From Pseudomonadota bacterium (GTDB lineage Bacteria > Pseudomonadota > Gammaproteobacteria > Burkholderiales > JAJZUU01): a stretch of 64,000 nt of DNA. How positions within the stretch are numbered: position 1 is the first letter of the stretch; every line of letters starts with the position of its first letter. This document shows positions 10,892 through 36,889 of the stretch, piece by piece. A program made the position numbers and the translations under genes. Location of the stretch: the NCBI GenBank assembly GCA_021848325.1, contig JAJZUU010000002.1, forward strand, positions 26,630 through 90,629, written 5' to 3'. The notes beneath the pieces are model-generated. The model was not told the origin of the DNA and ran no database searches. It was given only the letters and a program-made list of their open reading frames with translations.

Positions 10892-11356
10892 ATGATTTCA
10901 CTCACGGTCAACGGCAAGCAGGAACAAGTAGCGGCTAGCCCGGATACGCCGCTGTTATGGGTGCTGCGCGACATCCTCGGCCTTACCGGGACCAAATTCG
11001 GCTGCGGCATCGCCGCCTGCGGGGCGTGCACGGTGCACCTCGACGGGGAGCCCATCCGCTCCTGCGTGACCCCGGTTTCCGCGGCCGCCGGCAGAAGCGT
11101 CACCACCATCGAGGGGCTGTCGGGGGACAGCGGCCATCCCCTGCAGCAGGCCTGGATCGCCGAGCAGGTTCCCCAGTGCGGCTACTGCCAGTCGGGTCAG
11201 ATCATGGCCGCAGCCGGACTGCTGGCGAAAAATCCCGCCCCCAGCGACGCCGACATAGACGCGGCCATGTCCGGCATCATTTGCCGTTGCGGGACCTATC
11301 AGCGGGTGCGCGACGCCATTCACCGCGCCGTCAAGGCAAAACGGGGGGAGGTGTGA
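10892..11356 (+). CDS. [2Fe-2S]-binding small subunit of a molybdenum hydroxylase (IorA / aldehyde oxidoreductase type)
   Basis: [12 protein letters not shown] and QCGYCQSG...CRCGTY cluster motifs. GGAGGA precedes ATG 10892. The track ORF is over-extended 5'. Confidence 0.9.
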
Positions 11357-11357
11357 G

Positions 11358-13508
11358 ATGACCCAAACCATCGACCAAGGCCGGCGAACCTTCATCAAGG
11401 CCAGTGCCGCCGTCGGCGGCGGGCTGCTGATCGGATTTTACCTCCCCGCCGCGAGCCGGCTGGCCGAAGCGGCCGAATCCCCGGCCCCACTCCGCCCCAA
11501 CGCATGGATTCGCGTCGGCGAGGACGGCAAGATCACGGTGATCGTGGACAAGTCCGAGATGGGACAGGGCGTGATGACCGCCCTGCCGATGCTGGTGGCC
11601 GAGGAGATGGACGCGGCCTGGAACCAGGTCCGGGTGGAAACCGCCCCGGCCGCCAAGGCCTATATCAACCCCCTGCTGGGGATGCAGGCCACCGGCGGGA
11701 GCAGCAGCGTGCGCGGCTCCTGGGAACCGTTGCGCAAGGCCGGGGCCGCGGCCCGGGAGATGCTGGTGGCGGCCGCCGCGCAAACCTGGGGGGTCAAGGC
11801 GGACGCCTGCCGCGTGGCGAACGGCGAAGTGAGCCACCCGGCCAGCGGGCGGCGCCTGGGCTATGGGGAACTGACCGCCAGGGCGGCCACCCTGCCGGTC
11901 CCCAATGAGGTATTTCTGAAGGACCCCCAGGAGTTCAAGCTGATCGGCAAGCCCGTGCCGCGTCTGGACACGCCGCAGAAAGTGAACGGCAGCGCCGTGT
12001 TCGGGCTGGACGTGAAGGTCCCGGGCATGCTCACCGCCACCGTGGTGCGCTGCCCGGTGTTCGGCGGAAAGGCGGCCTCGTTCGATCCGAAGCAAGCCAA
12101 GCGGATAAGGGGCGTGCGCCATGTGCTGCAAATCGCCTCGGGGGTCGCCGTGGTGGCGGACGGCTTCTGGGCCGCCCAGCAGGGGGCCAAGGCCCTGCAA
12201 GTGCGCTGGGACGAGGGCGCACACGCCGGCCTTTCCAGCGCCGGCATCAGGGACAAATTCGCCACCCTGGCGCAAAGGCCGGGCGCCGTCGCCAGGAGCG
12301 CGGGCGATGCGGCCCGGGCCCTGCAGGGCGCGGCAAGAAAGATCGAGGCGGTGTACGAAGTGCCCTACCTGGCCCACGCCACCATGGAGCCCATGAACTG
12401 CACCGCCCACGTGCGCAAGAACGGCTGCGAGGTCTGGGTCCCCACCCAGGCGCAAGGCCGGGTGCAGCAGACGGTGGCGCAGGTGACCGGCCTGCCGGCG
12501 GAATCGGTCACGGTGCACACCACCTTCCTTGGAGGGGGATTCGGGCGCCGCTTCGAACAGGACTTCGTGGCCGAGGCGGCGCAGATCTCCAAGGCGCTGG
12601 GCGTCCCGGTGAAGGCGGTGTGGACCCGGGAAGACGACATGCAGCACGACTTCTACCGCCCCGCCACCTACAACGCCCTGAGCGCGGGCCTGGACGAAAA
12701 AGGGCTGCCGGTGGCCTGGAGCCACCGTATCGTCGGCCCCTCCATCATGTCCCGGGTGTTTCCCAACATGGTCAAGAACGGCATCGACCCCACTTCGGTG
12801 GAGGGGGCGGCCAACCTGCCCTATGCCATCCCCAACCTGCAAGTGGAATATACCATGCACGATCCGGGCGTGCCGGTGGGGTTCTGGCGCTCCGTGGGCA
12901 GTTCCCAGAACGCCTTTATCACCGAGTGCTTCCTGGACGAACTGGCGGCGGCCGGCGGCAAGGACCCGTTCCATCTGCGCCGCGAACTGTTACACGCCGC
13001 GCCGCGCCACAAGGCGGTGCTGGAATTGGCGGCGGCCAAGGCGGGCTGGGGCAAACCCCTGCCCAAAGGCCTCTATCGCGGCATCGCGGTGCACGAGTCC
13101 TTCACCAGTTTTGTCGCCCAGGTGGCGGAGGTGTCCGTCTCCGGCGAAGGCGAGGTCAAGGTGCACCGGGTGGTATGCGCCGTGGACTGCGGCATGGTGG
13201 TCAACCCGGACACGGTCAGGGCGCAGATGGAAAGCGCCATCGTCTACGGCCTGACCGCCGCGCTCAAGGGAGAGATCACGGTCATGGGCGGCCGCGTGCA
13301 GCAGAGCAACTTCAACGATTACCCGATGTTGCGGATGGACGAAATGCCCCGGGTGGAAGTCTACATCCGACCCGGCGCAGACACCCCGGGGGGCGTGGGC
13401 GAACCGGGCACGCCTCCCATCGCTCCGGCGGTGGCCAACGCGATATTCGCCGCCACCGGCAAGCGCATCCGCCGACTGCCGATCCGCGCCGAGGATCTCA
13501 AGGCATGA
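11358..13508 (+). CDS. molybdopterin-binding large subunit of the hydroxylase (IorB-like), Tat-exported
   Basis: Twin-arginine signal [16 protein letters not shown]. 716 aa aldehyde-oxidase/xanthine-dehydrogenase a/b-hammerhead type sequence. Starts 1 nt after the small-subunit gene ends. Confidence 0.9.
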
Positions 13509-15102: not shown

Positions 15103-15334
15103 ACGAAACCGCCGCTCACCGTTCCCGCACCCATGCCATCGGCTTGCAAAACCGGCCGCCGTCCCTATATACCTGTATATTCGCGTAATTTGCTCGCTGT
15201 TCTTCATTGCAAGAATGTCGGGTAGCCTATAGAATATTCGGCTATGTCGCACTTCGGCCAGCCCCCGTCGCCACGACTGCTGCGTGAAGGGTATCCGCCG
15301 ACCCTCCTCGGCGGCTTCTCAAGTCCGGAAGCAG

Positions 15335-16540
15335 ATGAAACACCATAAAGCCAGCCTGAATACTGTCTCGAAACGAACCCCGGCGGACGGCGCTTACAAG
15401 ATTCCCGCGCTGAGCGCGCTGTCCGAGATGACGGCCAGCCTGAGCAGCGACAACGACGTCGAGGACCTGCTGAGCCGCTTCCTCAGCACCATGATCCGAT
15501 TGGCCGGGGCCGATGCCGGCGCGGTGCGGGTGATCACGGCGGACGGATCGCACCTGCGGCTGGTGGGCGCCCTGGGGCTGCCGCCGGAGGTGGTGGAAAA
15601 GGAACAATACGTCGCCCTCGGCTGCGGCATCTGCGGCAAGGCGACCCGCGAGCATTCCATCGAATCCAGCAGCGACGAGATATGCCGGGAAAACACCGCG
15701 CTGGGCTATTTCGGCGACCGCTGCAAGAACGTGGTGGCGGTGCCGTTGCGCCACAAGGGCAAGGTCATGGGGGTCTACAACCTGTTCATGGCCTCCGGCC
15801 GCAAGGTCCCGGAAGACGTGTCGCTGCTGTTCTCTTCCATCAGCGAGCACCTGGGCATGGCGCTGGAAAATGCCCGGCTCACCCGGGAAAACATGCGCAT
15901 CACCCTGATGAATGAGCGCCAGATGCTGGCCAACGAGATCCACGACTCCCTGGCGCAGACCCTGGCCTACATGAAAATGCGGGTCGCCATGCTGCGGGAG
16001 GCGTTGAACGCGGACGACCAGACCCTCTCCACCAAATACCTCAACGACGTGGACGACGCCGTGGAATCCGCCTATTCCGGACTGCGCGAACTGATCGGAC
16101 AATTCCGCTACCGCATGGACCCGCGCGGCCTGCTGCCGGCGCTGGAGGACATCATGCGCAGCTTTTGCGACACGTCCGGCGGCACCATCGACTTCACGAA
16201 TTGCACTCAGGACATGAACCTCACCCCCGATCAGGAGGTGCAGGTGTTCCACATCGTGCAGGAAGCCCTGGCAAACATCAGCAAACATGCCCATGCGCGG
16301 CACGTCAAATTGATCATGGAGGTGCAGGACGGCAGATACGTCATCACCATCGACGACGACGGCATCGGCCTGCCGACCGACAACCGCCGGCCGGGGGGCT
16401 TGCACTTCGGCATGAACATCATGCGCGAACGGGCCCAGCGCATCGGCGGCGAGATCACCATCGCCAGCCGGATCGGGGAAGGCACCCGGGTGCGGCTCAT
16501 GTTCCCGGCGGGCAACGGCCGCAGGGAAGGCAGGGCATGA
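15335..16540 (+). CDS. soluble GAF-domain sensor histidine kinase (HisKA_3/NarX-type)
   Basis: No hydrophobic segment. GAF block with GCGICGKA. H-box ANEIHDSLAQTL. C-terminal HATPase (GLPTDNRRPGGLHFGMNIMRERA). Confidence 0.85.
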   Translation: MKHHKASLNTVSKRTPADGAYKIPALSALSEMTASLSSDNDVEDLLSRFLSTMIRLAGADAGAVRVITADGSHLRLVGALGLPPEVVEKEQYVALGCGICGKATREHSIESSSDEICRENTALGYFGDRCKNVVAVPLRHKGKVMGVYNLFMASGRKVPEDVSLLFSSISEHLGMALENARLTRENMRITLMNERQMLANEIHDSLAQTLAYMKMRVAMLREALNADDQTLSTKYLNDVDDAVESAYSGLRELIGQFRYRMDPRGLLPALEDIMRSFCDTSGGTIDFTNCTQDMNLTPDQEVQVFHIVQEALANISKHAHARHVKLIMEVQDGRYVITIDDDGIGLPTDNRRPGGLHFGMNIMRERAQRIGGEITIASRIGEGTRVRLMFPAGNGRREGRA

Positions 16541-17214
16541 AAGATCCGATCCGCGTCGTATTGATCGACGATCACACCCTGTTCCGCATGGGCCTCGCGG
16601 AACTGCTGGAGCGGCGCGGGGCGATCCAGGTGGTGGGGATATCGGGCAACGGCGAGGATGCGCACCAACTGCTGCAGGACAAGCAACCGGACGTGCTCAT
16701 CGTCGACCTGCACATGCCGCCCCTCAACGGTATCTCCCTGGTCAGCCAGTTGCGGGAGGAGGGGTTTACCATCCCCATCCTGGTGCTCACGGTAAGCAAT
16801 GCCGAGGAGGATCTGGCCAACGCCCTGCGCGCCGGTGCCCAGGGTTACCTGCTCAAGGACATCGAACCGGACGAGATGGTGGACGCCATCCGGCGCGCGG
16901 CCCGCGGCGAAACCGTGGTGGCCTCGGCCATGACCATGAAGCTGGTCAAGCTGCTGGAAGGCAAACAGGACACCTCGGAATCCCTGCTCAATTCCCTCAC
17001 CCAGCGCGAACGCGAGATACTCACTCACCTGGCCCACGGCGAGAGCAACAAGACCATCGCCCGTGCGCTGGAGATCAGTCACGACACGGTCAAGCTGCAT
17101 GTGCGGCATATCCTTTCCAAACTGAACCTGACTTCGCGCGTAGAGGCCGCGGTATTTGCCGTAGAGCACAAGATCGGCCTGGCGCGCAATTCCTCTTCGG
17201 GAAACCCCGGCTAG
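16537..17214 (+). CDS. NarL/FixJ-family response regulator (REC + LuxR HTH)
   Basis: VLIDDH...LIVDLHMPPLNG receiver. LTQREREILTHLAHGESNKTIARAL HTH. ATGA overlap with the kinase gene. Confidence 0.9.
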   Translation: MKDPIRVVLIDDHTLFRMGLAELLERRGAIQVVGISGNGEDAHQLLQDKQPDVLIVDLHMPPLNGISLVSQLREEGFTIPILVLTVSNAEEDLANALRAGAQGYLLKDIEPDEMVDAIRRAARGETVVASAMTMKLVKLLEGKQDTSESLLNSLTQREREILTHLAHGESNKTIARALEISHDTVKLHVRHILSKLNLTSRVEAAVFAVEHKIGLARNSSSGNPG

Positions 17215-17378: not shown

Positions 17379-17427
17379 GCAGCGCCCGAAACGTCTTAAT
17401 CACCTCTGCATGGATGGCTTAACAAGT

Positions 17428-18858
17428 ATGGATTTCTTTCCCATTTTCCTGGACATCAACGGCAAGAACTGCCTGGTCGTGGGCGGCGGCGAGGTGGCTG
17501 CACGCAAGGTCCGCATGCTGCAGAGATCCGGCGCCAAGGTCACCGTCGTGGCGCCTGAACTGGGCCAGGCCCTTGAGATTCAGGCACGCCAGGGCGCGGT
17601 CACCCATCAGCGCGCCGTGTTCAGTCCGGAACAACTGGCAGACGCCGTACTGGTAATCGCCGCAACCAACGATGCAGCGGTCAACCGCCAGGTATCCGAG
17701 ACGGCCAAACGGCAGCGCATTCCGGTCAACGTGGTGGACAGTCCCGCCCTGTGCTCCTTCATCATGCCCTCGGTGATCGACCGCTCCCCGCTGCTGGTCG
17801 CGGTCTCCACCAGCGGCGCGTCCCCGGTGCTGGCGCGGCTGCTGCGGGCGCGGCTGGAGTCCCTCATTCCCGCCGCCTACGGCCAGTTGGCTTCCCTTGC
17901 GGCGAATTTCCGCGACCAGGTGAAAAAGCGCATCTCCCGGCCGGAAAACCGCCGCATTTTCTGGGAGAAGGTGTTCCAGGGGCATGTCGCCGAAATGGTG
18001 TTCGCCGGCAGGGAAAAGGCGGCCCAGCGCGCGCTGCAGGAGCTCCTGGACAGCCAGCAGGGCGACGCACCGACGCGCGGCGAGGTCTACCTGGTGGGCG
18101 CCGGGCCGGGCAACCCGGACCTGCTCACCTTCCGCGCCCTGCGTCTGATGCAGCAAGCGGACGTGGTGGTGTACGACCACCTCGTCGCCCCCACCATCCT
18201 GGACATGGCGCGCCGGGACGCCGACCGCATCTATGTGGGTAAGGAGCGCAACAACCATGCCCTGCCCCAGGAGGCGATCAACGACCTGCTGGTACGGCTG
18301 GCCAAGGAAGGCAAGCGGGTGCTGCGCCTGAAAGGGGGAGACCCCTTCATCTTCGGGCGCGGCGGGGAGGAAATCGAAACCCTGGCCGCCCATGGGGTCG
18401 CGTTCCAGGTGGTGCCCGGCATCACCGCGGCGTCCGGGGTCGCCTCCTACGCGGGGATTCCCCTGACCCATCGCGACTATGCCCAGTCCTGCGTGTTCGT
18501 CACCGGACACCTGAAGGACGGCAGCATGAACCTGGACTGGGAAGCGCTGGCCCGGCCCCGCCAAACCATCGTCATCTACATGGGGCTGCTGGGACTGCCG
18601 GTGCTGTGCTCCCAATTGACGGCTCACGGGCTGCCCGCAGATACCCCTGCCGCCATCGTGCAGCAAGGCACCACCCATCGGCAGCGGGTGCTCACCGGGA
18701 CCCTGGCGACACTTCCGGCGATCACCGCCAGCGCCAATCTGACGCCGCCTACCCTGATCATCGTAGGGGATGTGGTGCGCCTGCACGAGAAGCTGGAATG
18801 GTTCGAGCCGGAGGGCGCCGTCGCCGCCGACATGCCCCCCGGGGCAGAGAAGGTGTAG
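17428..18858 (+). CDS. cysG: siroheme synthase (multifunctional CysG)
   Basis: [24 protein letters not shown]-binding N-domain. [18 protein letters not shown] and [19 protein letters not shown] motifs. Confidence 0.9.
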
Positions 18859-18865: not shown

Positions 18866-20350
18866 CTAAAGGGCGTGGGGCGAGGCGTAGATCCCCGGGC
18901 GGAAGAGGTCCTTGCCGGACTTCGAGAACGCCGAGGCATAGGGGTCGATGGTGGCCTCCAGTTCCTCGCACCAGGACGGATGGCTGTAGCTCATGTCCTT
19001 GAAAAACCACATGCCGCGGGGTGATTGGCAGGCCGCCGACAGCATGTGGATCTGCTCCCCCGCCTCCGGGCCGACGATGCAGCCCCCCAGCAGTTGTCCG
19101 GTCTCGGCATCGTGCACCACCTCGATGAAACCCTCGTAATCGTGGTGCGCACGGGCCTTGCCGGAACCGCCGAAACTGGAGCGGGCCACGTCCGCGTCGA
19201 ATCCCGCCTCCTCGGCCTGGTCTTCGGTGAGCCCCACCGCGGCGATCTCCAGGGCGGAGTGGATAACGAACGGCACCTTGAAGTAGTTGATGGTCATCTG
19301 GTTGCCGTTGACCGCGTTGGCGGCGGCCACTTTGGCGTCGTGCAGGGCCGCATTCGCGGTCATCGGCCCGGCCTTCACGTCGCCGATGGCGTAGATGCCG
19401 GGGACGCTGGTCTCCAGATATTCCGAGGTCTGGATGAAGCCTTCCCGGGTCAGCACGACCCCCGCCTCCTCCAAGCCCAGACCGGCGGTGTAGGGACGTC
19501 TGCCGACCGCCACCAGCACCCGCTCGAAGCTCGCCCGGCTGCCGTCCGTGAAGGTCGCTTCCACCGAGCCGCCGTCCACCCGGCAACGCTCCACCGACAT
19601 GCCCTTGCTCACCTCGATGCCGATGCGCTTGAATTTCCTTTCCAGCAGGCCGCTGGCCCGCTCCGGGATGCGCGGCTGATCCAGCAGGCGCTCCCCCGCT
19701 TCCACGATGCGCACCTTGGCGCCGAACTGGTGCAGGAGGAACCCCAGTTCCACGCCGATGGCACCGCCGCCCACGCACAGCACGGAGGCCGGCAGATCCT
19801 CCAGCTTGAACATGAAATCCCGGGAATTGATAATCATCCGCCCGTCCGTCGGGCATCCCGGCAATTCCTTCGGCTCCGCGCCGGTGGCGACGATGATGCG
19901 CGACGCGTACAGTTCCACCGGACTTGAAAGTTCGTCCCCGGCCGCGCCGGCCCCCGACGGCGTGTCGGGATCGGGCGGGCAGGGCTGTACCCGGATGCGG
20001 CGCGCGTCGAGCAAGCGGGCCTCGCCGCGGATCAGATGCACCCCAAGGCGCTTCAGCCACACCCGGAAGTTGTCGCGGATGCCCCCGACCACTTCGTCCT
20101 TGTGCGCCATGGCGGCCCGGAAGTCGCCGTGCACCCGCCCCACCAGGCCGAGTCCCTGAAGTTCGTTGACATCCTCGATAAGCGAGGCCAAATGCAGCAG
20201 AGTCTTTTTCGGGATGCATCCCTGGTTCAAACAGGTGCCGCCGGCCAAGCCCCTTTCCACCAGGGCGACCCGCGCCCCGAGGTGGGCTGCCGTGATCGCG
20301 GCCTTATATCCGCCGGGACCGCTGCCAACGATTGCGACGTCGAACTTCAT
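18866..20350 (-). CDS. dihydrolipoyl-dehydrogenase-like pyridine nucleotide-disulfide oxidoreductase, last gene of the dsr transcription unit
   Basis: MKFDVAIVGSGPGGY FAD motif. Redox-active GGTCLNQGCIPKK. Second Rossmann VGGGAIGVELG. C-terminal SHPSWCEELE dimerisation/His-Glu region. Trimmed to ATG 20350, 26 nt after dsrR. Confidence 0.85.
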   Translation of the reverse strand: MKFDVAIVGSGPGGYKAAITAAHLGARVALVERGLAGGTCLNQGCIPKKTLLHLASLIEDVNELQGLGLVGRVHGDFRAAMAHKDEVVGGIRDNFRVWLKRLGVHLIRGEARLLDARRIRVQPCPPDPDTPSGAGAAGDELSSPVELYASRIIVATGAEPKELPGCPTDGRMIINSRDFMFKLEDLPASVLCVGGGAIGVELGFLLHQFGAKVRIVEAGERLLDQPRIPERASGLLERKFKRIGIEVSKGMSVERCRVDGGSVEATFTDGSRASFERVLVAVGRRPYTAGLGLEEAGVVLTREGFIQTSEYLETSVPGIYAIGDVKAGPMTANAALHDAKVAAANAVNGNQMTINYFKVPFVIHSALEIAAVGLTEDQAEEAGFDADVARSSFGGSGKARAHHDYEGFIEVVHDAETGQLLGGCIVGPEAGEQIHMLSAACQSPRGMWFFKDMSYSHPSWCEELEATIDPYASAFSKSGKDLFRPGIYASPHAL

Positions 20351-20376
20351 GACTTCATGAGGCCCCCATGGCGCTG

Positions 20377-20730
20377 CTACGTGCTGCAGCCTCCGCCGGA
20401 ACAGCCACTGCAGCCCCCACCCGACAGTTCCGGGCCGCATCCGGTATCATTCGGGTTGATGAAAATGAAGTTGAACTGCCCGGGCTCCAACTCCACGAAA
20501 TCGAGGGTCACGCCTTCCAGCAAATCCTCGCTGTGGGGCGACACCAGCACAATCACCCCCTCGGACATCACCTGGAGATCCCCCTCCCGCTCCTCGTCGA
20601 ATCCCATCGCGTAGGCCACCGATCCGTCGGGCTCGCGCTTGGCCGCAATGCGCAACCCGGACCCTTCGGCACCGCTCTGTATGGCCGCTTCGCGGATCTG
20701 TCTGGCTGCCTGGGCAGTTACGTTGACCAT
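20377..20730 (-). CDS. dsrR: IscA/HesB-like protein DsrR, with an unusual Cys/Gly-rich C-terminal tail
   Basis: MVNVTAQAARQIREA...LRIAAK...FIFINPN is the IscA fold pattern. Position directly after dsrN. Tail is TGCGPELSGGGCSGCSGGGCST. Confidence 0.75.
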   Translation of the reverse strand: MVNVTAQAARQIREAAIQSGAEGSGLRIAAKREPDGSVAYAMGFDEEREGDLQVMSEGVIVLVSPHSEDLLEGVTLDFVELEPGQFNFIFINPNDTGCGPELSGGGCSGCSGGGCST

Positions 20731-20765: not shown

Positions 20766-22175
20766 CTACGGTTTCGCCAGTCGCGCCATTCGGGCCGCAT
20801 CACCCGCAGTCGCCGCCCTGTCCCGCACGAAGGCCACGAACCGGCCGGCCCAATCATAGCCGCCCACGCTGCGCAGGTGGGTGTAGGATGCGAGCAGGTT
20901 CTTGTACACGATACCGTCGTGCCGGCCGTCGATGCCGTGCCCGCGCACCACCTCATAGGCGAATTCCACGCCCTCCGGCAGATTTTCCAGGCTCGAATAA
21001 TGAAACTCGTGGGCGCGCCACTCGGTGCGGCCACCCTGCCAGGGGCTTCTGCCGGTTTCCTTCAAGCGCACGTAGCCGCGCCCCACAGGCTTCTCGTGCA
21101 TCACCACGTCGCCCGGGATGATGCCGACCATATCGCGGGTCTGGCCATGCCAGGTCATGGTGCGGGCGAGATACATCAGCCCTCCGCACTCCGCGTAAAC
21201 CGGAAGCCCTGCCTCCACCGCGCTGCGTATCTCGCCCCGCAACGAAACGTTCGCCTCCAGTTCCGCCATGAAAAGCTCCGGGAAGCCGCCGCCGATGACC
21301 AACCCGTCCACCTCGGGCAGGTGCGGGTCCGTCAGCGCATCCACGGGCACCAGCTCCGCGCCGGCCGCCCGCAGCGCGTCGATATCGTCCGCGTAGTAGA
21401 AGCCGAACGCCTTGTCGCGCACCAGCCCGATGCGCACCCTTTGCCCCGGCCTGGAATTTGCCACCGCCGCTGCCCGGTTCCAGGCCAGCGGCGGCGCCGC
21501 CTCCGCGGCCTGCAACAGTTTGTCCAGGTCCACCTGCGCGCCCACCAGCGCTCCGAACTCCGCCACCTGGCGCGTCGCCACCTCGGACTCGTTGCTGGGC
21601 ATGAGGCCCAGATGCCGCTCCACGATGCGCAGCCGGGGATCATAGTGGACGGCTCCCAACACCGGAACGTCCGTGTAATGCTCGATTACCGCACGCAGCT
21701 TGCCCTCGTGGCGCGATCCCCCGAGGTTGTTGAGGATCACCCCGGCAATGCAAATATTGCGATCGAAGGCCTGATAACCCAGGATCAGCGGGGCGATGCC
21801 GCGGGTCATTCCGCGCGCGTCTATCACCAGGACTACCGGTGCCCCCAGCAATTCTGCCAGCGCCGCGTTGCTGCTGCTGCCGTCCAGTTCCAGCCCGTCG
21901 TACAGCCCCTTGTTGCCTTCCACCAGGCTAACGTCCGCCGACTCCGCGTAGCGGCCGAACAGGTCCCGGATCGCTTCCCGCTCCATCAGGTAGAAATCCA
22001 GATTCCGGCAGGGCCGCCCGCTGGCCAGCGTCAGCCACATGGGATCGATGTAGTCCGGCCCCTTTTTGAAAGGCTGCACTACCCGGCCGCGCGCCCTGAG
22101 CGCCGCGCACAGCCCGATGCTGATGGTGGTCTTACCGGATGACTTATGAGCTGCGGAAATAAGAAAACGTGACAT
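20766..22175 (-). CDS. dsrN: cobyrinic acid a,c-diamide synthase homolog DsrN (siroheme amidase)
   Basis: SAAHKSSGKTTISIGL P-loop. CobB/CbiA body. C-terminal glutamine amidotransferase YAECGGLMYL. Located within the dsr cluster. Confidence 0.85.
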   Translation of the reverse strand: MSRFLISAAHKSSGKTTISIGLCAALRARGRVVQPFKKGPDYIDPMWLTLASGRPCRNLDFYLMEREAIRDLFGRYAESADVSLVEGNKGLYDGLELDGSSSNAALAELLGAPVVLVIDARGMTRGIAPLILGYQAFDRNICIAGVILNNLGGSRHEGKLRAVIEHYTDVPVLGAVHYDPRLRIVERHLGLMPSNESEVATRQVAEFGALVGAQVDLDKLLQAAEAAPPLAWNRAAAVANSRPGQRVRIGLVRDKAFGFYYADDIDALRAAGAELVPVDALTDPHLPEVDGLVIGGGFPELFMAELEANVSLRGEIRSAVEAGLPVYAECGGLMYLARTMTWHGQTRDMVGIIPGDVVMHEKPVGRGYVRLKETGRSPWQGGRTEWRAHEFHYSSLENLPEGVEFAYEVVRGHGIDGRHDGIVYKNLLASYTHLRSVGGYDWAGRFVAFVRDRAATAGDAARMARLAKP

Positions 22176-22226
22176 GCGGAAGTGAGAAGAGAAAGGGAGG
22201 TCGGGGGACGGGCCGACAGGCGCCCC

Positions 22227-23228
22227 TCAGGCGGCGTCGAGACGCCCGGCGGCGCGCTTGTTCCAGAGTCGGGACGCGAGTTCCTGCGCCGCATCGATGG
22301 AGGTCGCCTTCCCCAGCGCCTTCAACGCAATCGCCGCGGTGCCGATAACGGCTGCGGTACCGTATTCATCCTCGCCCGCACCGTTCCACAGCGCCTTCAG
22401 GCGGCTCACATCCATGGTTTCGTCCTTGAGATGCCGCGGGCCGCCGAACATTGCCGGCCATTCCTCGTTCTCCAGGACGCCGTTATGCACGCTCTGGACC
22501 AGGCAAGGCGCGTCGGGATTGCGCTCGATCTCGCCGCCCTCCCCTTTCAGTACCGCCATGTGGGGCTGTTTGAGAAGCAGCCCGGTTTCCTGGTGGAGAT
22601 TGCGATAGCCCGGATGGAATATCCCTTGCAGCATTACGGGTGCCCCGAACGGATTGATCATCCGTGCCAGGGTATGTACCGGCGAGCGCAGGCCCAGCAA
22701 CGGCCGTAGTTCCATGATTTCGCTAAGCAGGGGACTGATGTTGCCCAGGCTGATGTAGGCAAATCCCCGTTCCGTGATGCGCGTCGCAGCCTCCTCCAGC
22801 GAGCGGCACTCCTTGATGCCCAGTGCCGCCAGCGCTTCCGGGGTATATACCCGGCCGTCCTTGCGCCCCCCGCTACCGTGCATGAGTACGGGAATGCCCG
22901 CATCCGCAAGAAGCAGGGCGGACAGCAGGAACCACGGCAACTGCCGCTTCTTTCCGGCGTAGGTGGACCAGTCCAGCCGAACCTCCGGGCAGTGGGCCGG
23001 TCGCTTGAGGAATTCCCGGGTCGCCAGCACGAACCCTGCCAACTCCTCCGGCGTCTCTTCCTTCACCCGCATCAACATCAGGAAGGCACCCAATTGAATT
23101 GGCTGCACCTGCTGCGCCAGAATCATCTTCATGGCATCGTAGGCCTCGGCTTGAGTCAGCGCGCGAGCGCCCTGCTTGCCCTTTCCGAGGATGCGGATGT
23201 ATTGCGCGAACGGATGTTCTTCAGCCAC
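22227..23228 (-). CDS. glycosyltransferase family 3 / TrpD2-like (anthranilate phosphoribosyltransferase fold) protein inserted between dsrP and dsrN
   Basis: N-terminal helical domain LTQAEAYDAMKMILAQQVQPIQLGAFLMLMRVKEETPEELAGF. Core aligns by eye with TrpD (VLMHGSGGR...GFAYISL...LGLRSPVHTLARMINP). The PRPP-binding GTGGD position reads YAGKK. GTG start. Confidence 0.7.
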   Translation of the reverse strand: MAEEHPFAQYIRILGKGKQGARALTQAEAYDAMKMILAQQVQPIQLGAFLMLMRVKEETPEELAGFVLATREFLKRPAHCPEVRLDWSTYAGKKRQLPWFLLSALLLADAGIPVLMHGSGGRKDGRVYTPEALAALGIKECRSLEEAATRITERGFAYISLGNISPLLSEIMELRPLLGLRSPVHTLARMINPFGAPVMLQGIFHPGYRNLHQETGLLLKQPHMAVLKGEGGEIERNPDAPCLVQSVHNGVLENEEWPAMFGGPRHLKDETMDVSRLKALWNGAGEDEYGTAAVIGTAAIALKALGKATSIDAAQELASRLWNKRAAGRLDAA

Positions 23229-23250
23229 GGGACGCTATCTCGTTACGTTA

Positions 23251-24480
23251 TCAAGCCGGCTTAGCCACCGCCTTGGCGCCGTGGTGCACATCCACCACAT
23301 CGTCCCCAAGGCTGTCCGGCAAGAGCCGCAGGACCTTGATCGCGAACACCACGATGAGCCCGGCGATAGCCACACCCCCCAGGCCAAGGAACACCTCCGG
23401 CACGCTGGCATGATAGCTGTGGATGACTCCATCGTAGAAGCTGCTGGACTGCTGCATTCCGGGGAACAGGTCCAGCGGCCACGCCTGCCCTCCGACGATG
23501 GTGACGTACATCTGCGCCAAGCCGCCCAGGATCACCAGCACCGACGCGAGGGCGATGGATCGCCGGGACTTGCCCGCGCTAGGATGAAACAGGATCACCA
23601 GCGGCAGCACACTGCCCAGCAAAATCTGCCCGATCCAGAACACCTGGGTGTTGACCCCGCCATCCACCAGGATAAAGTGCTCGGCCGCACGGTGCTCCGC
23701 ATAATACAGATTGGTCATATGGTACACCGCCACGAAATACAGCACTGCCGCCACAAATACCGCCAACAGGCCCTTGAGCCGCAGCAGCACGCCGTCGCCG
23801 AGGGGGCGGCCGGTCCAGCCGTAGGCCGCCATGAGCACCAGAATATAGATCGCGAGCCCGTAGGAGAACGACATGATGATGAACATCGGCGCAAACAGCG
23901 CCGAGTCGTACAACGCCCGCGCCACCAGAAAGCCGAAGATGGAGCCGGTACCGGTGGTAAGCAACAGACGCCAGATAAAAGCCGCCACGCCGGCCGCCTT
24001 GGTATAGGGCTTCATGCGCTGTTCCATCTGGGCCCACAGGTAAATCGCCACGAGGCCCACAAAGCCGCTGTAGAGAAACACGTTCCAGGCAAAAACCGAC
24101 CTGAAATTATAGTGCGTCATCGCCACAATTACCCGATCGGCGCGCCCCAGGTCCAGCATCAGAACGGTCAGCCCGCCCGCCAGCAAGGCGACGGACAGCA
24201 CCCCGGAAAGCGGCGCCAGCGGCTTGTACATGGACTTGCCGAACACCGATCCGATGGAAGCCACGTTAAGCGCTCCGGAGGCGGCCACAATGAGAAACAC
24301 CGCGAACACATGAGGTATTCCCCACACCACCTGATTGGTCATGCCGGTAACGTGATGGCCATTCGTCTCCATGTAATGGGCGGCGAGCAGCCCCAACAGG
24401 GTAAACAGCGCCAGCCCGGCCAGCAGCACATAATACCCGACGCTTTTTCCCTCTATTTCCCTAAAAACCATATTTTTCAT
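23251..24480 (-). CDS. dsrP: DsrP, NrfD/PsrC-like integral membrane quinone-interacting subunit
   Basis: About 10 hydrophobic helices. NrfD-like MKNMVFREIEGKSVGYYVLLAGL. Follows dsrO. Confidence 0.85.
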   Translation of the reverse strand: MKNMVFREIEGKSVGYYVLLAGLALFTLLGLLAAHYMETNGHHVTGMTNQVVWGIPHVFAVFLIVAASGALNVASIGSVFGKSMYKPLAPLSGVLSVALLAGGLTVLMLDLGRADRVIVAMTHYNFRSVFAWNVFLYSGFVGLVAIYLWAQMEQRMKPYTKAAGVAAFIWRLLLTTGTGSIFGFLVARALYDSALFAPMFIIMSFSYGLAIYILVLMAAYGWTGRPLGDGVLLRLKGLLAVFVAAVLYFVAVYHMTNLYYAEHRAAEHFILVDGGVNTQVFWIGQILLGSVLPLVILFHPSAGKSRRSIALASVLVILGGLAQMYVTIVGGQAWPLDLFPGMQQSSSFYDGVIHSYHASVPEVFLGLGGVAIAGLIVVFAIKVLRLLPDSLGDDVVDVHHGAKAVAKPA

Positions 24481-24484
24481 CGTC

Positions 24485-25219
24485 TCAGACCCCCTGGTAG
24501 CGCACACCGGTGTCCAGCCCCAGGTCGGCCCGGACTTGCTTCGTGGTGTATTCGGCTATCCGCTTGGAAATGTCGCTGTTCGGATCGTTCAGGTCACCGA
24601 AGATGATGGCTTCGTGTCCGGCGGCCGCGCAGGCATCCACACACGCCGGCTTCAACCCCGCATCGACACGCTCCACGCACATCGTGCACGCCTCCACCGT
24701 ACCGATGCCCCGCGGCCGTCCCGGCTTTTGGTCGGTAACCGGGTGCGCCACAAATGAGCGCGCCTTGTACGGGCAGGCCATCATGCAGTAGCGGCAGCCG
24801 ATGCAAATGTGACGGTCCACCAGTACGATGCCGTCGGCACGTTTGAACGACGCGCCGGTCGGGCATACGTCCGTGCACGGCGGGTTACCGCAGTGCTGGC
24901 ACATCATCGGCAAGGACATCACCCGCCCGCTGTGCGTGTCCTTGAGATCCATCTTCCGGATCCACTGCGAGTCGTCCGGTCCGGTCCCACCGGACAATCC
25001 ATTCTCCTTGTTGCACGCGGTCACACAGTCGCTGCAACCGCTATGGCACTGGTTCGCGTCAATCAGCATGCCCCACCGCACCTTGCTCGATACGGGCTGA
25101 TCATCGGGCTTCCCGTGCGCCAGGTCGATCAGCGTCACCCCGGGCGCTATGGCCAAACCCGCCATCGCCGCGGTGCCCCATCCCAAAAACTGCCTCCGGC
25201 TTGTGTTCACCTCGCTCAT
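24485..25219 (-). CDS. dsrO: DsrO, Tat-exported 4x[4Fe-4S] ferredoxin-like subunit
   Basis: SRRQFLGWG twin-arginine signal. Several CxxCxxCxxxCP clusters. ATGA overlap with the dsrJ stop. Confidence 0.85.
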   Translation of the reverse strand: MSEVNTSRRQFLGWGTAAMAGLAIAPGVTLIDLAHGKPDDQPVSSKVRWGMLIDANQCHSGCSDCVTACNKENGLSGGTGPDDSQWIRKMDLKDTHSGRVMSLPMMCQHCGNPPCTDVCPTGASFKRADGIVLVDRHICIGCRYCMMACPYKARSFVAHPVTDQKPGRPRGIGTVEACTMCVERVDAGLKPACVDACAAAGHEAIIFGDLNDPNSDISKRIAEYTTKQVRADLGLDTGVRYQGV

Positions 25220-30577: not shown

Positions 30578-30877
30578 CTACAGCCAGGATTGAGCGTTGT
30601 TGTGCTCCGCCACCAAGTCCACAAAACCGCCGTAGTCGACCAGTTTAACACCCTCGATCACGGCATCCTGCATGCCTCGCGCCTCCAGATCGGGCCACAG
30701 CGCATACACGCTCCGGTCCTTCAGCGCCTCCTTGATTTTGCCTTCGGCGATATTTCCCTTGGTCGCCCCGTACACGCCGTCCTCGATCAGCAGAACAGCC
30801 GAACCCTTTCCGCTCATCCGCAGGCAGCTGTCCAGCGTGTTCCGCTCGGACGGAGATTTGTTAACGATATGCAGCAT
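30578..30877 (-). CDS. dsrH: DsrH sulfur-relay subunit
   Basis: MLHIVNKSP...LDSCLRM (conserved Cys). 99 aa. Follows dsrF. Confidence 0.9.
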   Translation of the reverse strand: MLHIVNKSPSERNTLDSCLRMSGKGSAVLLIEDGVYGATKGNIAEGKIKEALKDRSVYALWPDLEARGMQDAVIEGVKLVDYGGFVDLVAEHNNAQSWL

Positions 30878-32892: not shown

Positions 32893-34176
32893 TCAGGCCG
32901 CGCTCGCTTGCTTTTGCTTGATCTTGGCGACTTCCTCATCCCAGCCGTCCATGCGGACGTACGGGTTGGTCCTGGGGTAGTTGACCATGTTGGGATCGAT
33001 ATCGAGGCCAATCCCCTCCAGGAAGTTGACCAGGCCGATGCGTTCGATCATCTCCCCGGTACGCTCGTGCTCCAGCGCGTTTTCCGCGAAGAAGTCGATC
33101 ATGTTGCCAGCCAACTCCACCAGCGCCTCGAAGTCCTCTTCGGTTTCGAGTTTCATGAACGGAACCACCATGGTGCCCATCAGGTCACCGATCTTCAGGG
33201 TGCGCTTGCCGCCTACCAAAACGCTCACGCCCTTGTCTGTGCCCGTCGCGAGGGCACCGGTCATGACATTGATGCAGTGCATGCAGCGCACGCAGTTGGA
33301 ATTATCGACTTCCACCGAATGGGTGTCGCTCACCGCCACGGCGGAGATGCGCTCGCCCTTGGCCACTTTGGCGCTTTCCTTGAGGGTGATGGCCTTGGTC
33401 GGGCAGCGGCTGATGACGTTGTTCACCAAGTCATCCATGCCGTGCTTGGCATACCATTTCCGGGCCAGACCTTCGTCCACCCGCATGTTGTCGCGCCAGG
33501 TGCCGATCACCGCCATGTCTGCGCGCTGGATGGAATTCACACAGTCGTTGGGGCAGCCGGAAAACTTGAACTTGAATTTATACGGCAGGGCCGGACGGTG
33601 CATATCGTCCAGGAAGTTGTTGACCACCATGCGCAACGCCTTGCCTTCGTCGTAGCAAGACTGTTCGCAACGGGCCGCGCCGACACAGGACATGGAGGTG
33701 CGCACCGCGGGGCCGGCGCCGCCCATGTCGAAGCCCAATTCGTTGAGCTCATCGAAGGCAGGCTGAACGTTGTCGCTGCTGATCCCTTGGAACATGATGT
33801 CGCCGCTCTGGCCGTGGAAAGCGATCAGACCGGAACCGTGCCGTTCCCAGATGTCGCAGAACTTGCGCAGGATGTCCGTGTTGTAGTGCATCCCGGCGGG
33901 CGGCATGATCCGCAAGGTGTGAAACTCGGAGGATTCCGGAAACATGCTGGCCACTTCCGAGAAGCGCGGAATCACGCCGCCGCCGTACCCAAACACGCCA
34001 ACCGTCCCGCCCTTCCAGTAGCCCTTGCGGGTCTGGTAGGAATGCTCAAGCTGGCCGAGCAGATCAACCATCATGTCGTTGTCTTGCGCCAGACGCTTGA
34101 GGCCGGTTACAAAGCTGGGCCACGGACCGCTTTCCAATTGGTCGAGATTGGGGGTCTCGTGCATTTTCTTCGCCAT
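32893..34176 (-). CDS. dsrA: dissimilatory sulfite reductase alpha subunit (oxidative type)
   Basis: MAKKMHETPNLDQLESGPWPSFV...FKFKFSGCPNDC...CVRCMHC. GAGGAG precedes ATG 34176. Confidence 0.95.
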   Translation of the reverse strand: MAKKMHETPNLDQLESGPWPSFVTGLKRLAQDNDMMVDLLGQLEHSYQTRKGYWKGGTVGVFGYGGGVIPRFSEVASMFPESSEFHTLRIMPPAGMHYNTDILRKFCDIWERHGSGLIAFHGQSGDIMFQGISSDNVQPAFDELNELGFDMGGAGPAVRTSMSCVGAARCEQSCYDEGKALRMVVNNFLDDMHRPALPYKFKFKFSGCPNDCVNSIQRADMAVIGTWRDNMRVDEGLARKWYAKHGMDDLVNNVISRCPTKAITLKESAKVAKGERISAVAVSDTHSVEVDNSNCVRCMHCINVMTGALATGTDKGVSVLVGGKRTLKIGDLMGTMVVPFMKLETEEDFEALVELAGNMIDFFAENALEHERTGEMIERIGLVNFLEGIGLDIDPNMVNYPRTNPYVRMDGWDEEVAKIKQKQASAA

Positions 34177-34617
34177 AGGTATCACTCCTCAAGATTTTAA
34201 CAGTTACTCACTCAAGGCCAGCGGAACAATCCGAAGCCTATTGGTTTCACCACCCGGATCACGGAATCGATGCAGCACCGGACGCTCTTCAGCGAAAATT
34301 ATTAACCCGCTACGCCTAACGGCATAGCGGGCTTTGTTCGCAGGACACGCCCAGAATGTCTTCATCCGCAGCAGTTGGCCCAATGTTACAAGGGCGTCGA
34401 AGTGGGCGCTATCCTTCCGGTTGGGTGGTACGATACTACCCACAAGGAGTATATGGCCGTATCCCACTTCGGTAACCGGCATTTCGTCCGCGCTAAGTAT
34501 AATAGTATAGTTTAGGGTGCCGATTCCGCTGTAAGAATGAAGTTTTATTTTAATTGCGTCTTGATCGGCAACCCGGCGATCCCATATAGTTCCCCAGAAA
34601 ACCCATGGAGGCGCAGC

Positions 34618-34839
34618 ATGGAGCAAATCACCAAGCTCGATAAATTCATTGTGCCGTTCGGCGGTCGCGAAATCGAATTGCAGCAGGTCGACTACGCGAC
34701 GGGGGGCATGAGCTTGCTCCGCATCCGCATCCGTGAGCACAAGAGGTTTACCATCTTCGAGCTCGACCCCGATAGCGCCGAACACTGGGGAGATGCGATG
34801 GTGGCGTGGGCGCGGCAACAGAAGGCGTTATCCGCCTGA
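34618..34839 (+). CDS. small hypothetical protein (73 aa), first gene of the unit divergent from dsrA
   Basis: GGAGG lies 6 nt before ATG 34618. MEQITKLDKFIVPFGGREIELQQVDYATGGMSLLRIRIREHKRFTIFELDPDSAEHWGDAMVAWARQQ. No family recognised. Confidence 0.55.
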   Translation: MEQITKLDKFIVPFGGREIELQQVDYATGGMSLLRIRIREHKRFTIFELDPDSAEHWGDAMVAWARQQKALSA

Positions 34840-34860
34840 CCGCCGCAGACTAATGTCTTG

Positions 34861-35496
34861 ATGGAGACAGGTTTGGAAGACACACAGGACAAGATCGAAT
34901 CCTCCGTTGTGGATATCGTGTTCGACATTGAGGGCAAGGCCATCCCGGAAGACAATAGCTCGGCGCTCTGGCGCGAGGTGTTGCGCCATCTGCCCTGGCT
35001 CGAACAGGAGAAACACGCCGGCATCCACCCCCTTCAGGCGGCGCCGTCCGACTATGGTATGCTTCTGCTCACGCGGCGCACCAAGCTGGTGCTGCGGGTG
35101 GCGCAGGCGCACGTGGCGGCGGCGATGGAACTGACCGGCCGCCAATTGGATATCGGGGACAACGTACTTCGGGTGGGCAGCGGGAAGGTGCGTCCGCTGC
35201 CGGTTTTCGGGACGATCTACGCGCATTTTGTGGACATGGGCAGCGCCGACGAGACGCAGTTCGCGCGCCATCTCGCGCGGCGCCTGGAGGAAATGAAGAT
35301 CCAGACCAAGTTCATCTGCGGCAAGCGGCAAGCGCTGCATACGGACCAGGGCGTCGTCTCCGGCTTCAGCCTTATGCTATACGATCTGACGCCCGCACAG
35401 TCCATCCTGCTCCAGGAGATCGGTCTGGGCGCCAATCGCAAACTAGGTTGCGGCATCTTCATCCCCCACAAGTCGATCGCGGCCATCATGGCATGA
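34861..35496 (+). CDS. Cas6/Cmx6-like RAMP-family protein (orphan, no CRISPR context)
   Basis: 212 aa. C-proximal GLGANRKLGCG matches the Cas6 glycine-rich loop GhGxxxxxGhG, followed by IFIPHK. I recall this family being annotated as type I-MYXAN Cas6/Cmx6. I am confident this is a real gene; the family assignment is less sure. Confidence 0.5.
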   Translation: METGLEDTQDKIESSVVDIVFDIEGKAIPEDNSSALWREVLRHLPWLEQEKHAGIHPLQAAPSDYGMLLLTRRTKLVLRVAQAHVAAAMELTGRQLDIGDNVLRVGSGKVRPLPVFGTIYAHFVDMGSADETQFARHLARRLEEMKIQTKFICGKRQALHTDQGVVSGFSLMLYDLTPAQSILLQEIGLGANRKLGCGIFIPHKSIAAIMA

Positions 35497-35507
35497 GGGT
35501 ACCCGGC

Positions 35508-35550
35508 CCGGCCATCGGAATCGTTCCGGCGGCCGGTTAGATTTTATTTT
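35508..35550 (+). terminator. intrinsic terminator after the Cas6-like gene
   Basis: ccggccatcggaa-tcg-ttccggcggccgg (13-bp stem with a 2-nt internal mismatch), followed by ttagattttatttt. Confidence 0.55.
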
Positions 35551-35585
35551 GTCAACAACCCCAGCAATTATGAAAGGAGAAAAAA

Positions 35586-35915
35586 ATGGGATATGTAATT
35601 GGCGGCGTGGAACTGGAGACCGACGGTGACGGCTATCTGCTGGAACCCAACTTCAGCGACGAAGCGGTTGAGGTCATCGCTGCGGCCGAAGGCATCAAAC
35701 TGACCGACGGCCACTGGGAAGTGGTCAATTACATGCGCGACGAGTACAAGGAGCAAGGCCATACGCCCAACTTCCGCAACATGCTCAAGGGCTTCTCGGC
35801 CAGCCATCCCGGCGTCGACAGCAAGTATCTCTATGACCTGTTCCCCACGGGGCCGGCCAAACAGGCCGCCAAGGTGGCCGGCCTGCCGCAGCCCTACGGC
35901 AAGGGCGGCTACTGA
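35586..35915 (+). CDS. DsrC/TusE-family paralog lacking both conserved cysteines
   Basis: Aligns along its length with the DsrC at 30215-30547 (GHWEVVNYMRDEY / NHWEVINFLREYY; YLYDLFPTGPAKQAAKVAGLPQP / YLYELFPYGPAKQACKIAGLPKP). It ends PYGKGGY and contains no Cys at all. AAAGGAGA precedes the ATG. Confidence 0.85.
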   Translation: MGYVIGGVELETDGDGYLLEPNFSDEAVEVIAAAEGIKLTDGHWEVVNYMRDEYKEQGHTPNFRNMLKGFSASHPGVDSKYLYDLFPTGPAKQAAKVAGLPQPYGKGGY

Positions 35916-36028
35916 GCCCGACGTCGTCTGCGTTGCAAGAGAAGCAAGCCGCCGTGCCGCGGCCCCGGGTTTCCGGGGACCGGGCAGGGCGGGCGCCCAC
36001 CGGCAAATTTCGCCCCTGATCCGACAAC

Positions 36029-36889
36029 ATGAAGTACACGACTATTGTAGAGCCCCGGGAACTGGCGCGCCATCTCGACGACCCGCTGTGGGTCGTGTTC
36101 GACTGCAGGTTCACCCTCACCGACGCCCAGGCCGGGCGCAACGCCTACCGGCGCGCCCACATTCCGGGTGCGCGCTACGCCCATCTGGACGAAGACCTGG
36201 CCAGTGAGGTGACCGCAAACTCCGGCCGCCACCCCTTGCCCGATCCCGCGGCGCTGGCGGAAAGGCTGGGGCGCTGGGGGGTGGACGAAACGAAGCAGGT
36301 GGTGGTCTACGACGACAGTTTCGGCGCCATGGCAGGACGTATGTGGTGGCTGCTGCGTTGGCTGGGCCACGACGCGGTCGCTTTGCTTGACGGCGGCCTG
36401 CCCAAATGGATGCGGGAGGGCGGCGCCATGAGTGCCGAGCTTCCCGCGATCCTGCCCACGGCCTTCCGGGCGCGCCCGGACGATACCATGTGGGTGGACA
36501 GCGGCCGCGTCGAGCAGGCACTGCAAAACGGCGGCATCATCATAGACGCCCGTGCCGAGGAGCGTTTCGTAGGCGATATCGAACCCCTGGACCGGATCGC
36601 CGGGCATATTCCCGGCGCGGTGAACCTTCCGTTCGAGGACAACCTGAACCTGGGCGGCGGATTCCTGCCGCCGGAGGAACTGCGCGAACTCTATGCGGGG
36701 GCGACGCGCGGGAAAGCGCCCCGCGAAGTCATCCATATGTGCGGCTCCGGAGTGACTGCCTGCCATAACTTGCTGGCCATGGAAATGGCGGGGCTGCGCG
36801 GCGCCAAGCTGTACCCCGGCTCCTGGAGCGAGTGGATCACGGTGGAAACCCGTCCGGTAGCCGTTGGAGAGGAAAAAGCATGCGAATAA
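36029..36889 (+). CDS. tandem-rhodanese sulfurtransferase (SseA / 3-mercaptopyruvate or thiosulfate sulfurtransferase type)
   Basis: Two rhodanese domains. Active-site loop HMCGSGVTA. AHIPGARY in the N-domain. Confidence 0.85.
   Translation: MKYTTIVEPRELARHLDDPLWVVFDCRFTLTDAQAGRNAYRRAHIPGARYAHLDEDLASEVTANSGRHPLPDPAALAERLGRWGVDETKQVVVYDDSFGAMAGRMWWLLRWLGHDAVALLDGGLPKWMREGGAMSAELPAILPTAFRARPDDTMWVDSGRVEQALQNGGIIIDARAEERFVGDIEPLDRIAGHIPGAVNLPFEDNLNLGGGFLPPEELRELYAGATRGKAPREVIHMCGSGVTACHNLLAMEMAGLRGAKLYPGSWSEWITVETRPVAVGEEKACE

Follow-up and report, generated by a model that had tools for sequence, protein, structure and literature searches.

A TrpD2-like gene between dsrP and dsrN as a probable helper of siroheme supply

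Introduction

What is a gene resembling anthranilate phosphoribosyltransferase (TrpD) doing between dsrP and dsrN, in the middle of a cluster for reverse dissimilatory sulfite reductase (rDsr)? We address this question for a 64,000-nt stretch of contig JAJZUU010000002.1 from a Pseudomonadota bacterium (Burkholderiales), called the window below and always meant at full length, in which the open reading frame (ORF) between dsrP and dsrN, here named X, occupies the following position.

22227..23228, minus strand: gene X, encoding a 333-aa TrpD2-like protein of the NCBIfam family NF006564 (PRK09071), defined by ORF translation, profile score and AF2 model

We place X in a separate, unstudied subfamily of TrpD2-like proteins, closer to YbiB than to TrpD as far as sequence comparison goes, and regard it as probably an unrecognised helper of siroheme supply. 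All sulfite reductases and the assimilatory nitrite reductases depend on siroheme as their cofactor, and the pathway leading to it is regarded as complete, consisting of SirA, SirB and SirC or of CysG, with DsrN added for the amide. In the searched literature we found no published study of X and no paper linking it to siroheme, and two large dsr studies do not mention the gene (PMC10504309, PMC8477390). What is new here is a well-supported association of a TrpD2-like subfamily with the siroheme pathway, for which we propose a mechanism.

Siroheme genes as partners of X

Genomic loci (L numbers; protein clusters carry P numbers) were collected with X as the query, one genome per species, yielding 80 loci at 48-69% identity, to which four loci fetched earlier were added. 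The window's dsr proteins were mapped onto these loci, and the 66 with at least 1.5 kb on either side of X were taken as informative. Thirty-seven of them have the order dsrP-X-dsrN; the remaining 29 comprise 13 in which X adjoins cysG without dsr genes, one with dsrP-X only, one in which X is followed by a DsrN-like fusion, and 14 with other neighbours.

Where dsr genes are absent, siroheme synthase is by far the commonest neighbour of X. A scan of 99 flanking ORFs from such loci found TP_methylase in 15, CysG_dimeriser in 12 and NAD_binding_7 in 10, and cysG is adjacent in 13 of 27 loci. Full-length cysG lies 11-133 nt downstream of X, often at a distance of 11-34 nt, in eleven alphaproteobacterial loci from Rhodoblastus and relatives (L042, L044, L048, L056, L059, L069, L070, L077, L081, L083, L084), and cysG likewise follows X in three rDsr loci of Betaproteobacteria, L089, L105 (4-nt overlap) and L123. 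In eight alphaproteobacterial rDsr loci (L026, L027, L037, L045, L046, L061, L066, L068) the order extends to dsrP-X-dsrN-SUMT-CbiX, where SUMT, the uroporphyrinogen-III methyltransferase, is a methyltransferase-only CobA/SirA and the two-domain CbiX is a SirB-type chelatase. SUMT and CbiX flank X in a further locus that has no dsr genes (L078).

Gene fusions draw the same partners together. DsrN is fused to SUMT (CbiA, GATase_3 and TP_methylase domains) in single ORFs of 666-768 aa in L052, L061, L066, L074 and L082. Fusions of X with SUMT make up at least 33 protein clusters. One of these, P0242, is a 588-aa Gallionella protein with ten members from independent NCBI, ENA and Logan assemblies; another, P0300, has 584 aa and comes from five contigs. 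Both carry a PRK09071 domain (380 and 336 bits against a cut-off of 257) and a uroporphyrinogen-III methyltransferase domain (316 and 301 bits against 198), and a search with P0242 returned 32 clusters of full-length fusions, 565-613 aa long and 47-100% identical, whose named sources include Gallionella and Ferrovum. The SUMT half of the fusion shares 75-79% identity with its counterpart in ordinary CysG of related Gallionellaceae; the fused protein thus resembles an X-cysG pair minus the N-terminal dehydrogenase/chelatase domain of CysG. Fusion and tight adjacency in several separate lineages are the classical signature of a single shared pathway.

As a separate observation, in L082, where dsrP is missing, the DsrN~SUMT ORF (11242-13242) comes after X and has a fusion of persulfide dioxygenase and rhodanese (PDO-rhodanese) upstream.

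The same modules and fusions raise the idea that X is itself an enzyme of the siroheme branch, chiefly a non-homologous precorrin-2 dehydrogenase replacing SirC or the CysG N-terminal domain, although another tetrapyrrole step could also be meant. The X-dsrN-SUMT(SirA)-CbiX(SirB) modules hold every siroamide enzyme except SirC, so that X, their only gene without an assigned step, is SirC-like by position; no CysG-N-like domain was found in the flanks of the module loci, searched over at most 10 kb per side, or in those of the fusion loci. In X~SUMT, moreover, X sits N-terminally, where CysG has its dehydrogenase/chelatase domain, the identity of the SUMT half suggests that this CysG domain was lost, and X offers invariant residues H5, H117, H205, H212, E233 and E235 together with a G-x-G-x-x-G-like loop. 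This likeness to the CysG N-terminal domain, Met8p and SirC (precorrin-2 dehydrogenase, ferrochelatase) is positional only, however, as there is no sequence or fold relationship, and redox enzymes are not known among proteins with the TrpD fold. X also stands very often beside an intact CysG that retains the dehydrogenase/chelatase domain, in many loci as well as in the window, and two of the modules contain a separate dehydrogenase. We therefore regard an enzymatic X as unlikely, although it is the chief competitor of the role proposed below.

The separate dehydrogenase is an NAD_binding_2 gene, resembling 3-hydroxyisobutyrate/6-phosphogluconate dehydrogenases, which follows CbiX at the module end in L046 (13983-14840) and L026 (6628-7473); this gene could supply the missing precorrin-2 dehydrogenase instead of X.

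X within dsr clusters

A preliminary description of the window had placed a 333-aa ORF between dsrP and dsrN with gaps of 22 and 51 nt, and both spacers are exact. The entire dsr cluster of the window shares the minus strand with X and runs dsrA, B, E, F, H, C, M, K, L, J, O, dsrP, X, dsrN and a dsrR-like gene. The start codon of X is GTG and its stop TGA. The features on either side of X are as follows.

23251..24507, minus strand: dsrP, NrfD-type membrane subunit, upstream neighbour of X (Pfam NrfD 172 bits and synteny)
23229..23250, minus strand: 22-nt spacer from the dsrP stop to the X start
22176..22226, minus strand: 51-nt spacer from the X stop to the dsrN start
20766..22175, minus strand: dsrN, CobB/CbiA-type glutamine amidotransferase (siroheme amidase), downstream neighbour of X (Pfam and NCBIfam matches)
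20377..20730, minus strand: dsrR-like gene of the IscA/HesB family (Pfam Fe-S_biosyn, TIGR00049)
17410..18858, plus strand: full-length cysG (siroheme synthase) at the end of the cluster (Pfam NAD_binding_7, Sirohm_synth_M, CysG_dimeriser, TP_methylase)

Neither spacer yielded a promoter-like or terminator-like site in a consensus scan.

The order dsrP-X-dsrN is spread over Alpha-, Beta- and Gammaproteobacteria, with median gaps of 56 and 28 nt. Its hosts include Rhodomicrobium, Rhodospirillales, Thalassospiraceae, Rhodobacteraceae, Hyphomicrobiales, Beijerinckiaceae and Sulfuriferula, as well as one betaproteobacterial and several gammaproteobacterial metagenome-assembled genomes, and dsrN directly adjoins X in 43 of 72 informative loci. 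In the 27 loci that hold all four proteins, distances between X sequences correlate with those of DsrN (Mantel r 0.78), DsrP (0.74) and DsrO (0.81; p=0.001), compared with 0.79-0.83 among the dsr proteins themselves, and the mean pairwise distance is 0.41 for X and DsrN alike. When identity to the window is compared instead, the relation of X to DsrN and DsrP (rho -0.19 and -0.11) is uninformative, the range being narrow. X has a GC content of 0.633 against 0.61-0.66 for its neighbours, which its third-position GC (GC3) of 0.77 also matches. Neighbour-like GC and co-divergence together reject a recent insertion of X, and the preliminary description's worry about a strain-only insertion is settled by the synteny survey. 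By this comparison of sequences, X is a long-standing resident of dsrP-X-dsrN clusters.

Expression data point the same way in another organism. In Ruegeria SZCCDBA067, which shares the dsrP-X-dsrN order, the X orthologue (gene 02161) is co-induced with dsrP and dsrN when thiosulfate is supplied under micro-oxic conditions, according to a preprint supplement (10.1101/2024.06.14.599071); this co-induction is known from Ruegeria and not from the window organism. The supplementary table labels the gene 'Unknown', an anthranilate phosphoribosyltransferase-like protein, and the main text gives the cluster as 'dsrABEFHCMKLJOP-dsrN', skipping it (10.1101/2024.06.14.599071). The statement that no such role had been described for Dsr thus holds for dedicated studies, while the gene itself had already been listed as co-induced with rDsr genes. 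For sulfur-cycle genomics, this means that large-scale dsr synteny surveys overlooked a conserved, co-regulated gene.

Two variations of the clusters are recorded here in their own right. One alphaproteobacterial contig (CAWHIT010000003.1) carries two dsr clusters about 127 kb apart (L016 and L021), each with dsrP-X-dsrN, and dsrL is not detectable in one of them. In L027, L029, L035, L040, L046, L047 and L061, which are Rhodospirillales-type rDsr clusters, dsrL is duplicated in tandem (two adjacent matches, 56-59% identity).

Family, fold and the lost PRPP site

More than 5,500 homologues of X were found at E<=1e-10, about 330-340 aa in length and with a common start region 'M..EHPF'; at E<=1e-30 the family comprises 352 representative clusters (50% clustering). 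X scores 412.8 bits against NF006564 (cut-off 257), with residues 3-326 on model positions 9-330 of 335, and relatives from cysG, tus and fusion contexts pass this model too (396, 411, 380, 336 and 283 bits). In NCBIfam the model is named 'glycosyl transferase family protein', with no function given. The preliminary description had assigned X the two-domain layout of anthranilate phosphoribosyltransferase, and the Pfam matches and predicted fold agree.

23010..23204, minus strand: N-terminal helical-bundle domain, aa 9-73, Glycos_trans_3N (Pfam PF02885, 65.4 bits)
22269..22925, minus strand: C-terminal alpha/beta domain, aa 102-320, Glycos_transf_3 (Pfam PF00591, 28.7 bits, cut-off 27; fold confirmed by Foldseek)
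22944..22964, minus strand: T89-Y-A-G-K-K-R95, replacing the GTGGD loop of TrpD that binds phosphoribosyl pyrophosphate (PRPP) (profile alignments, conservation over 84 sequences)
22512..22544, minus strand: G229-E-G-G-E-I-E-R-N-P-D239, opposite the Mg/PRPP-binding 'G..DE' loop of TrpD

The AF2 model of X is of high quality (predicted local distance difference test 91.5, predicted template modelling score 0.91). In Foldseek it matches TrpD structures with template modelling (TM) scores of 0.78-0.83, and YbiB at TMq 0.79 and TMt 0.85 (4muo_A) or 0.81 and 0.84 (8bfr); because these values are similar, the fold cannot tell TrpD from TrpD2, and only profile scores and motifs discriminate. By profile, X reaches 161.1 bits on the YbiB equivalog model NF006005, under its cut-off of 185 and over residues 6-252 only, and 82.7 bits on the trpD model TIGR01245, under 199. 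Conversely, a profile built from 58 X-family sequences scores YbiB chains at 96 bits, the best among solved structures, and TrpD chains at 74, and Escherichia coli YbiB obtains 132 bits on the PRK09071 model, under 257. X and YbiB thus each fall below the other's cut-off, and YbiB sits on a very long branch of the tree.

The PRPP-binding motif defines TrpD and is missing from TrpD2 proteins (PMC9835598). In the profile alignment to Thermus thermophilus TrpD, T89-Y90-A91-G92-K93 of X stands opposite GTGGD; the preliminary description had rightly seen this loss and the resulting likeness to TrpD2/YbiB, and had read the replacement, as YAGKK, one residue out of register. Over 84 family sequences, Y90, G92, K93 and R95 are at least 98% conserved, as are G229, G231, G232, E233, E235 and P238 of the second loop, and the N-terminal domain has a conserved loop L14-G15-K16-G17-x-x-G20-x-R22. 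The other active-site equivalents have changed as well: KHGN has become MHGS, the Ser/Thr diphosphate loop GRKDGRVYT and the DE pair E233-I-E235.

Compared with TrpD (TIGR01245; PDB 1o17, 1zvw, 4hkm), X therefore shares the fold and both Pfam domains and keeps in its cleft the His of KHGN (MHG in X), an Arg (R164 of SsTrpD, R181 of X) and the N-P turn, whereas it has lost the GTGGD loop, the KHGN Lys, the Ser/Thr diphosphate loop and the Asp of the DE pair, and has no trp neighbours. A working anthranilate phosphoribosyltransferase serving as trpD back-up, or a class-II nucleoside phosphorylase, placed in the dsr operon by chance, would draw on the shared fold and on the automatic JGI name 'anthranilate phosphoribosyltransferase'. 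Set against these are the motif losses, the low TIGR01245 score and the missing trp-gene context, and, for the phosphorylase, a length of 333 aa where class-II enzymes have about 440 and no match to PYNP_C at E<=0.01 in Pfam. We give this explanation hardly any credence. With the PRPP-binding residues gone, the phosphoribosyl or nucleoside tailoring chemistry that the preliminary description had entertained is unsupported too.

YbiB (E. coli; PDB 4muo, 8bfr) is the closest characterised relative, with the same two-domain TrpD-like fold, a lost PRPP motif and a similar replacement of the type S-Y-x-G (S-Y-N-G-A-R-K opposite T89-R95 of X). Of the 47 positions that are at least 98% conserved across the 84 family sequences, 23 are identical in YbiB, among them R126 of X (YbiB R123), and R181 and H205 are likewise common to both (YbiB R178 and H204). 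YbiB R92 aligns with K94 of X, an Arg in most relatives, which lies between the invariant K93 and R95. Both R92 and R123 are groove arginines that bind the acidic tail of ObgE and are conserved in TrpD2 (PMC10123104). Specific to the X family are the invariant H5, F7, D86, W87, K93, R95, W99, H212, E235 and W257. The genomic settings differ as well: in E. coli the context is ybiA and dinG-ybiB, whereas X has siroheme and dsr genes for neighbours, and no helicase gene lies beside X in the window or figures among the 25 commonest Pfam families near its non-dsr loci.

Proposed role

Our preferred reading, to which we assign a rough probability of 0.45, is that X works in the siroheme branch as a tetrapyrrole-binding escort or scaffold. 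In the window, X would be co-transcribed with dsrP and with dsrN, its proposed functional partner. The former PRPP/anthranilate cleft, apparently remodelled to carry invariant Lys, Arg, His and Glu residues, may bind a polyanionic intermediate with eight carboxylates, namely precorrin-2, sirohydrochlorin or siroheme, and X would hand it between the methyltransferase or CysG, the chelatase, DsrN and the apo-enzyme DsrAB. It would thereby serve the supply of siro(haem)amide to DsrAB alongside DsrN, the IscA-like DsrR and the cysG of the cluster. That X binds a siroheme-pathway tetrapyrrole we judge slightly better than an even bet. The siroheme-branch intermediates are labile and carry eight carboxylates, and this, together with the basic, polyanion-binding grooves of TrpD2 proteins and the invariant Lys, Arg, His and Glu residues in and near the former active-site cleft, favours binding and escort.

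A functional parallel may be found in aerobic cobalamin synthesis, where CobE is said to be the carrier of hydrogenobyrinic acid (Deery et al. 2012). Like the role suggested for X, this would be a non-catalytic protein holding a labile tetrapyrrole and passing it to a CobB-type amidase, and DsrN is a CobB homologue; CobE is, however, an unrelated protein, and the likeness is functional only.

Were the proposed role correct, a widespread family would add a new player to siroheme synthesis, whether by escorting a labile, highly charged intermediate or by acting as a substitute enzyme. The pathway would then have a hitherto missing component built on a phosphoribosyltransferase fold, and a branch of the TrpD2 family would gain its first physiological lead.

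Several observations weigh against this role, beginning with the distribution of X. In a reverse survey, the window's DsrN was compared with metagenome contigs. Of the 80 loci obtained (DsrN identity 62-72%), 67 extend far enough upstream to be judged; in 66 of these dsrN comes directly after dsrP, with no X between them (L124, where the two overlap, is counted here), and L101 alone has dsrP-X-dsrN. Dsr consequently works without X at that position. X lies further downstream in five loci of this survey, as dsrN-X-cysG in L123, dsrN-(DsrC-like)-X-cysG in L105, dsrN-(sulfide:quinone reductase-like)-(DsrC-like)-X-cysG in L089, and after dsrN in L093 and L165. Both surveys retrieved loci through exact peptide patterns of the query, and many loci are phylogenetically related rather than independent events; the samples are therefore biased, and the fractions describe the samples, not nature. 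Heterotrophic gammaproteobacteria, moreover, have X as the last gene of an operon yccA-like(Bax1-I)-tusD-tusC-tusB-tusE-X with gaps of 9-28 nt (L166 6589-9023, L167-L170, L073, L075; including Oceanicoccus sagamiensis and Spongiibacteraceae, with trmA close by), no siroheme gene lies within 7-10 kb of these operons, and the siroheme hypothesis leaves the association unexplained. More distant family members occur in unrelated contexts, beside polysaccharide export genes or a SulP transporter. Finally, we know of no TrpD-fold protein that binds a tetrapyrrole, and YbiB, which comes nearest to X among the characterised proteins, has nucleic acids and an acidic peptide as its ligands (PMC10123104).

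Part of this evidence bears on scope. In a neighbour-joining tree, X from non-dsr loci is interspersed among X from dsr loci, and we found no residues worth naming as specific to dsr-linked X, so that the same protein appears to serve dsr and non-dsr settings. This pattern of sequences suggests that X is tied to siroheme synthesis in general and not to Dsr specifically. The preliminary description's proposal of a role in the siro(heme)amide cofactor accordingly survives in its siroheme part, through dsrN and cysG adjacency, the modules and the SUMT fusions, and fails in its restriction to Dsr, given the loci in which X adjoins cysG without dsr genes, the lack of a dsr-specific residue signature and the DsrN-centred loci that have no X between dsrP and dsrN.

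The tus operons also invite the view that X is a partner of the DsrC/TusE-type sulfur relay, which docks, regulates or takes sulfur and came into dsr clusters on account of DsrEFH-DsrC, not DsrN. Besides the close spacing in Oceanicoccus, Spongiibacteraceae and relatives, this view can point to a DsrC-family gene directly upstream of X-cysG in L105 (7485-7841) and L089 (8865-9221). The encoded protein, however, ends '...LRTKGEH' without either C-terminal cysteine, X in dsr clusters never adjoins dsrEFH or dsrC but always dsrN or cysG, no cysteine is invariant across the 84 X-family sequences, and the SUMT fusions would go unexplained. A relay partner is quite improbable on this balance.

Somewhat less improbable, yet still doubtful, is that X is a generic YbiB-like TrpD2 protein, a binder of nucleic acids or acidic tails with a regulatory or protective part in sulfite/persulfide stress or tRNA metabolism, whose siroheme neighbours are merely inherited gene order. 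High-affinity, sequence-independent nucleic-acid binding is a trait of TrpD2 proteins of the YbiB type, X shares their groove arginines (R126 for R123, and K/R94 opposite R92), and the heterotroph neighbours tusDCBE, trmA, ArsR-type regulators, PDO-rhodanese fusions and TauE suit a sulfur/tRNA theme. ApbC and a SulP transporter also recur beside X and, like the last three of these, point to sulfur metabolism in general. In addition, the PRK09071 domain (283 bits) replaces the usual effector domain behind a LysR-type helix-turn-helix (HTH) in P0378 (L175 6001-7485) and also in P0375, which puts it inside a DNA-binding regulator. There, however, the HTH supplies the DNA binding and the X domain is more likely the effector; the neighbours in L175 are genes for a TonB-dependent receptor, a PiuC-like oxygenase, Peripla_BP_2 and FecCD, and the fusion beside such uptake genes suggests that the PRK09071 domain can serve as a small-ligand sensor, which favours our preferred reading. 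A generic YbiB-like function further fails to account for the SUMT fusions (at least 33 clusters) and for the tight linkage of X with cysG, dsrN and cbiX in separate lineages, X falls below the YbiB cut-off and lacks a dinG/LexA context, and with a median isoelectric point of 6.3 the family is not generally basic, although that of YbiB itself is 6.4.

Further features of the window

The dsr cluster of the window includes two further genes with assigned positions.

32893-34185, minus strand: dsrA
30578-30877, minus strand: dsrH

Divergent from dsrA, at 34537-36889 on the plus strand, lie genes for DUF6967 (100 aa), a Cas6-family protein (PF09559, 198 bits), a second DsrC-family protein and a double-rhodanese protein. 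A Cas6-like gene at the dsr promoter region is oddly placed; no CRISPR array was noticed nearby, no search aimed at one having been made.

Between the dsrR-like gene and cysG, at 18866-20440 on the minus strand, a lipoamide-dehydrogenase-like flavoprotein (Pyr_redox_2 and Pyr_redox_dim) scores 382 bits on TIGR01350, below the cut-off of 409, and its true start is probably the internal 'MKFDVAIVGSG' at about 20350. The same gene follows dsrN or dsrR in L001, L010, L091, L094, L108, L143 and L148, which makes it a further unlisted accessory of betaproteobacterial rDsr clusters.

Beside the window's cysG stand a GAF-HisKA_3 sensor kinase (15284-16540, plus strand) and a LuxR/NarL-type response regulator (about 16540-17214, plus strand). 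This pair also borders the dsr cluster in L001 (Sulfuriferula) and in L171, and may be a dedicated dsr regulator.

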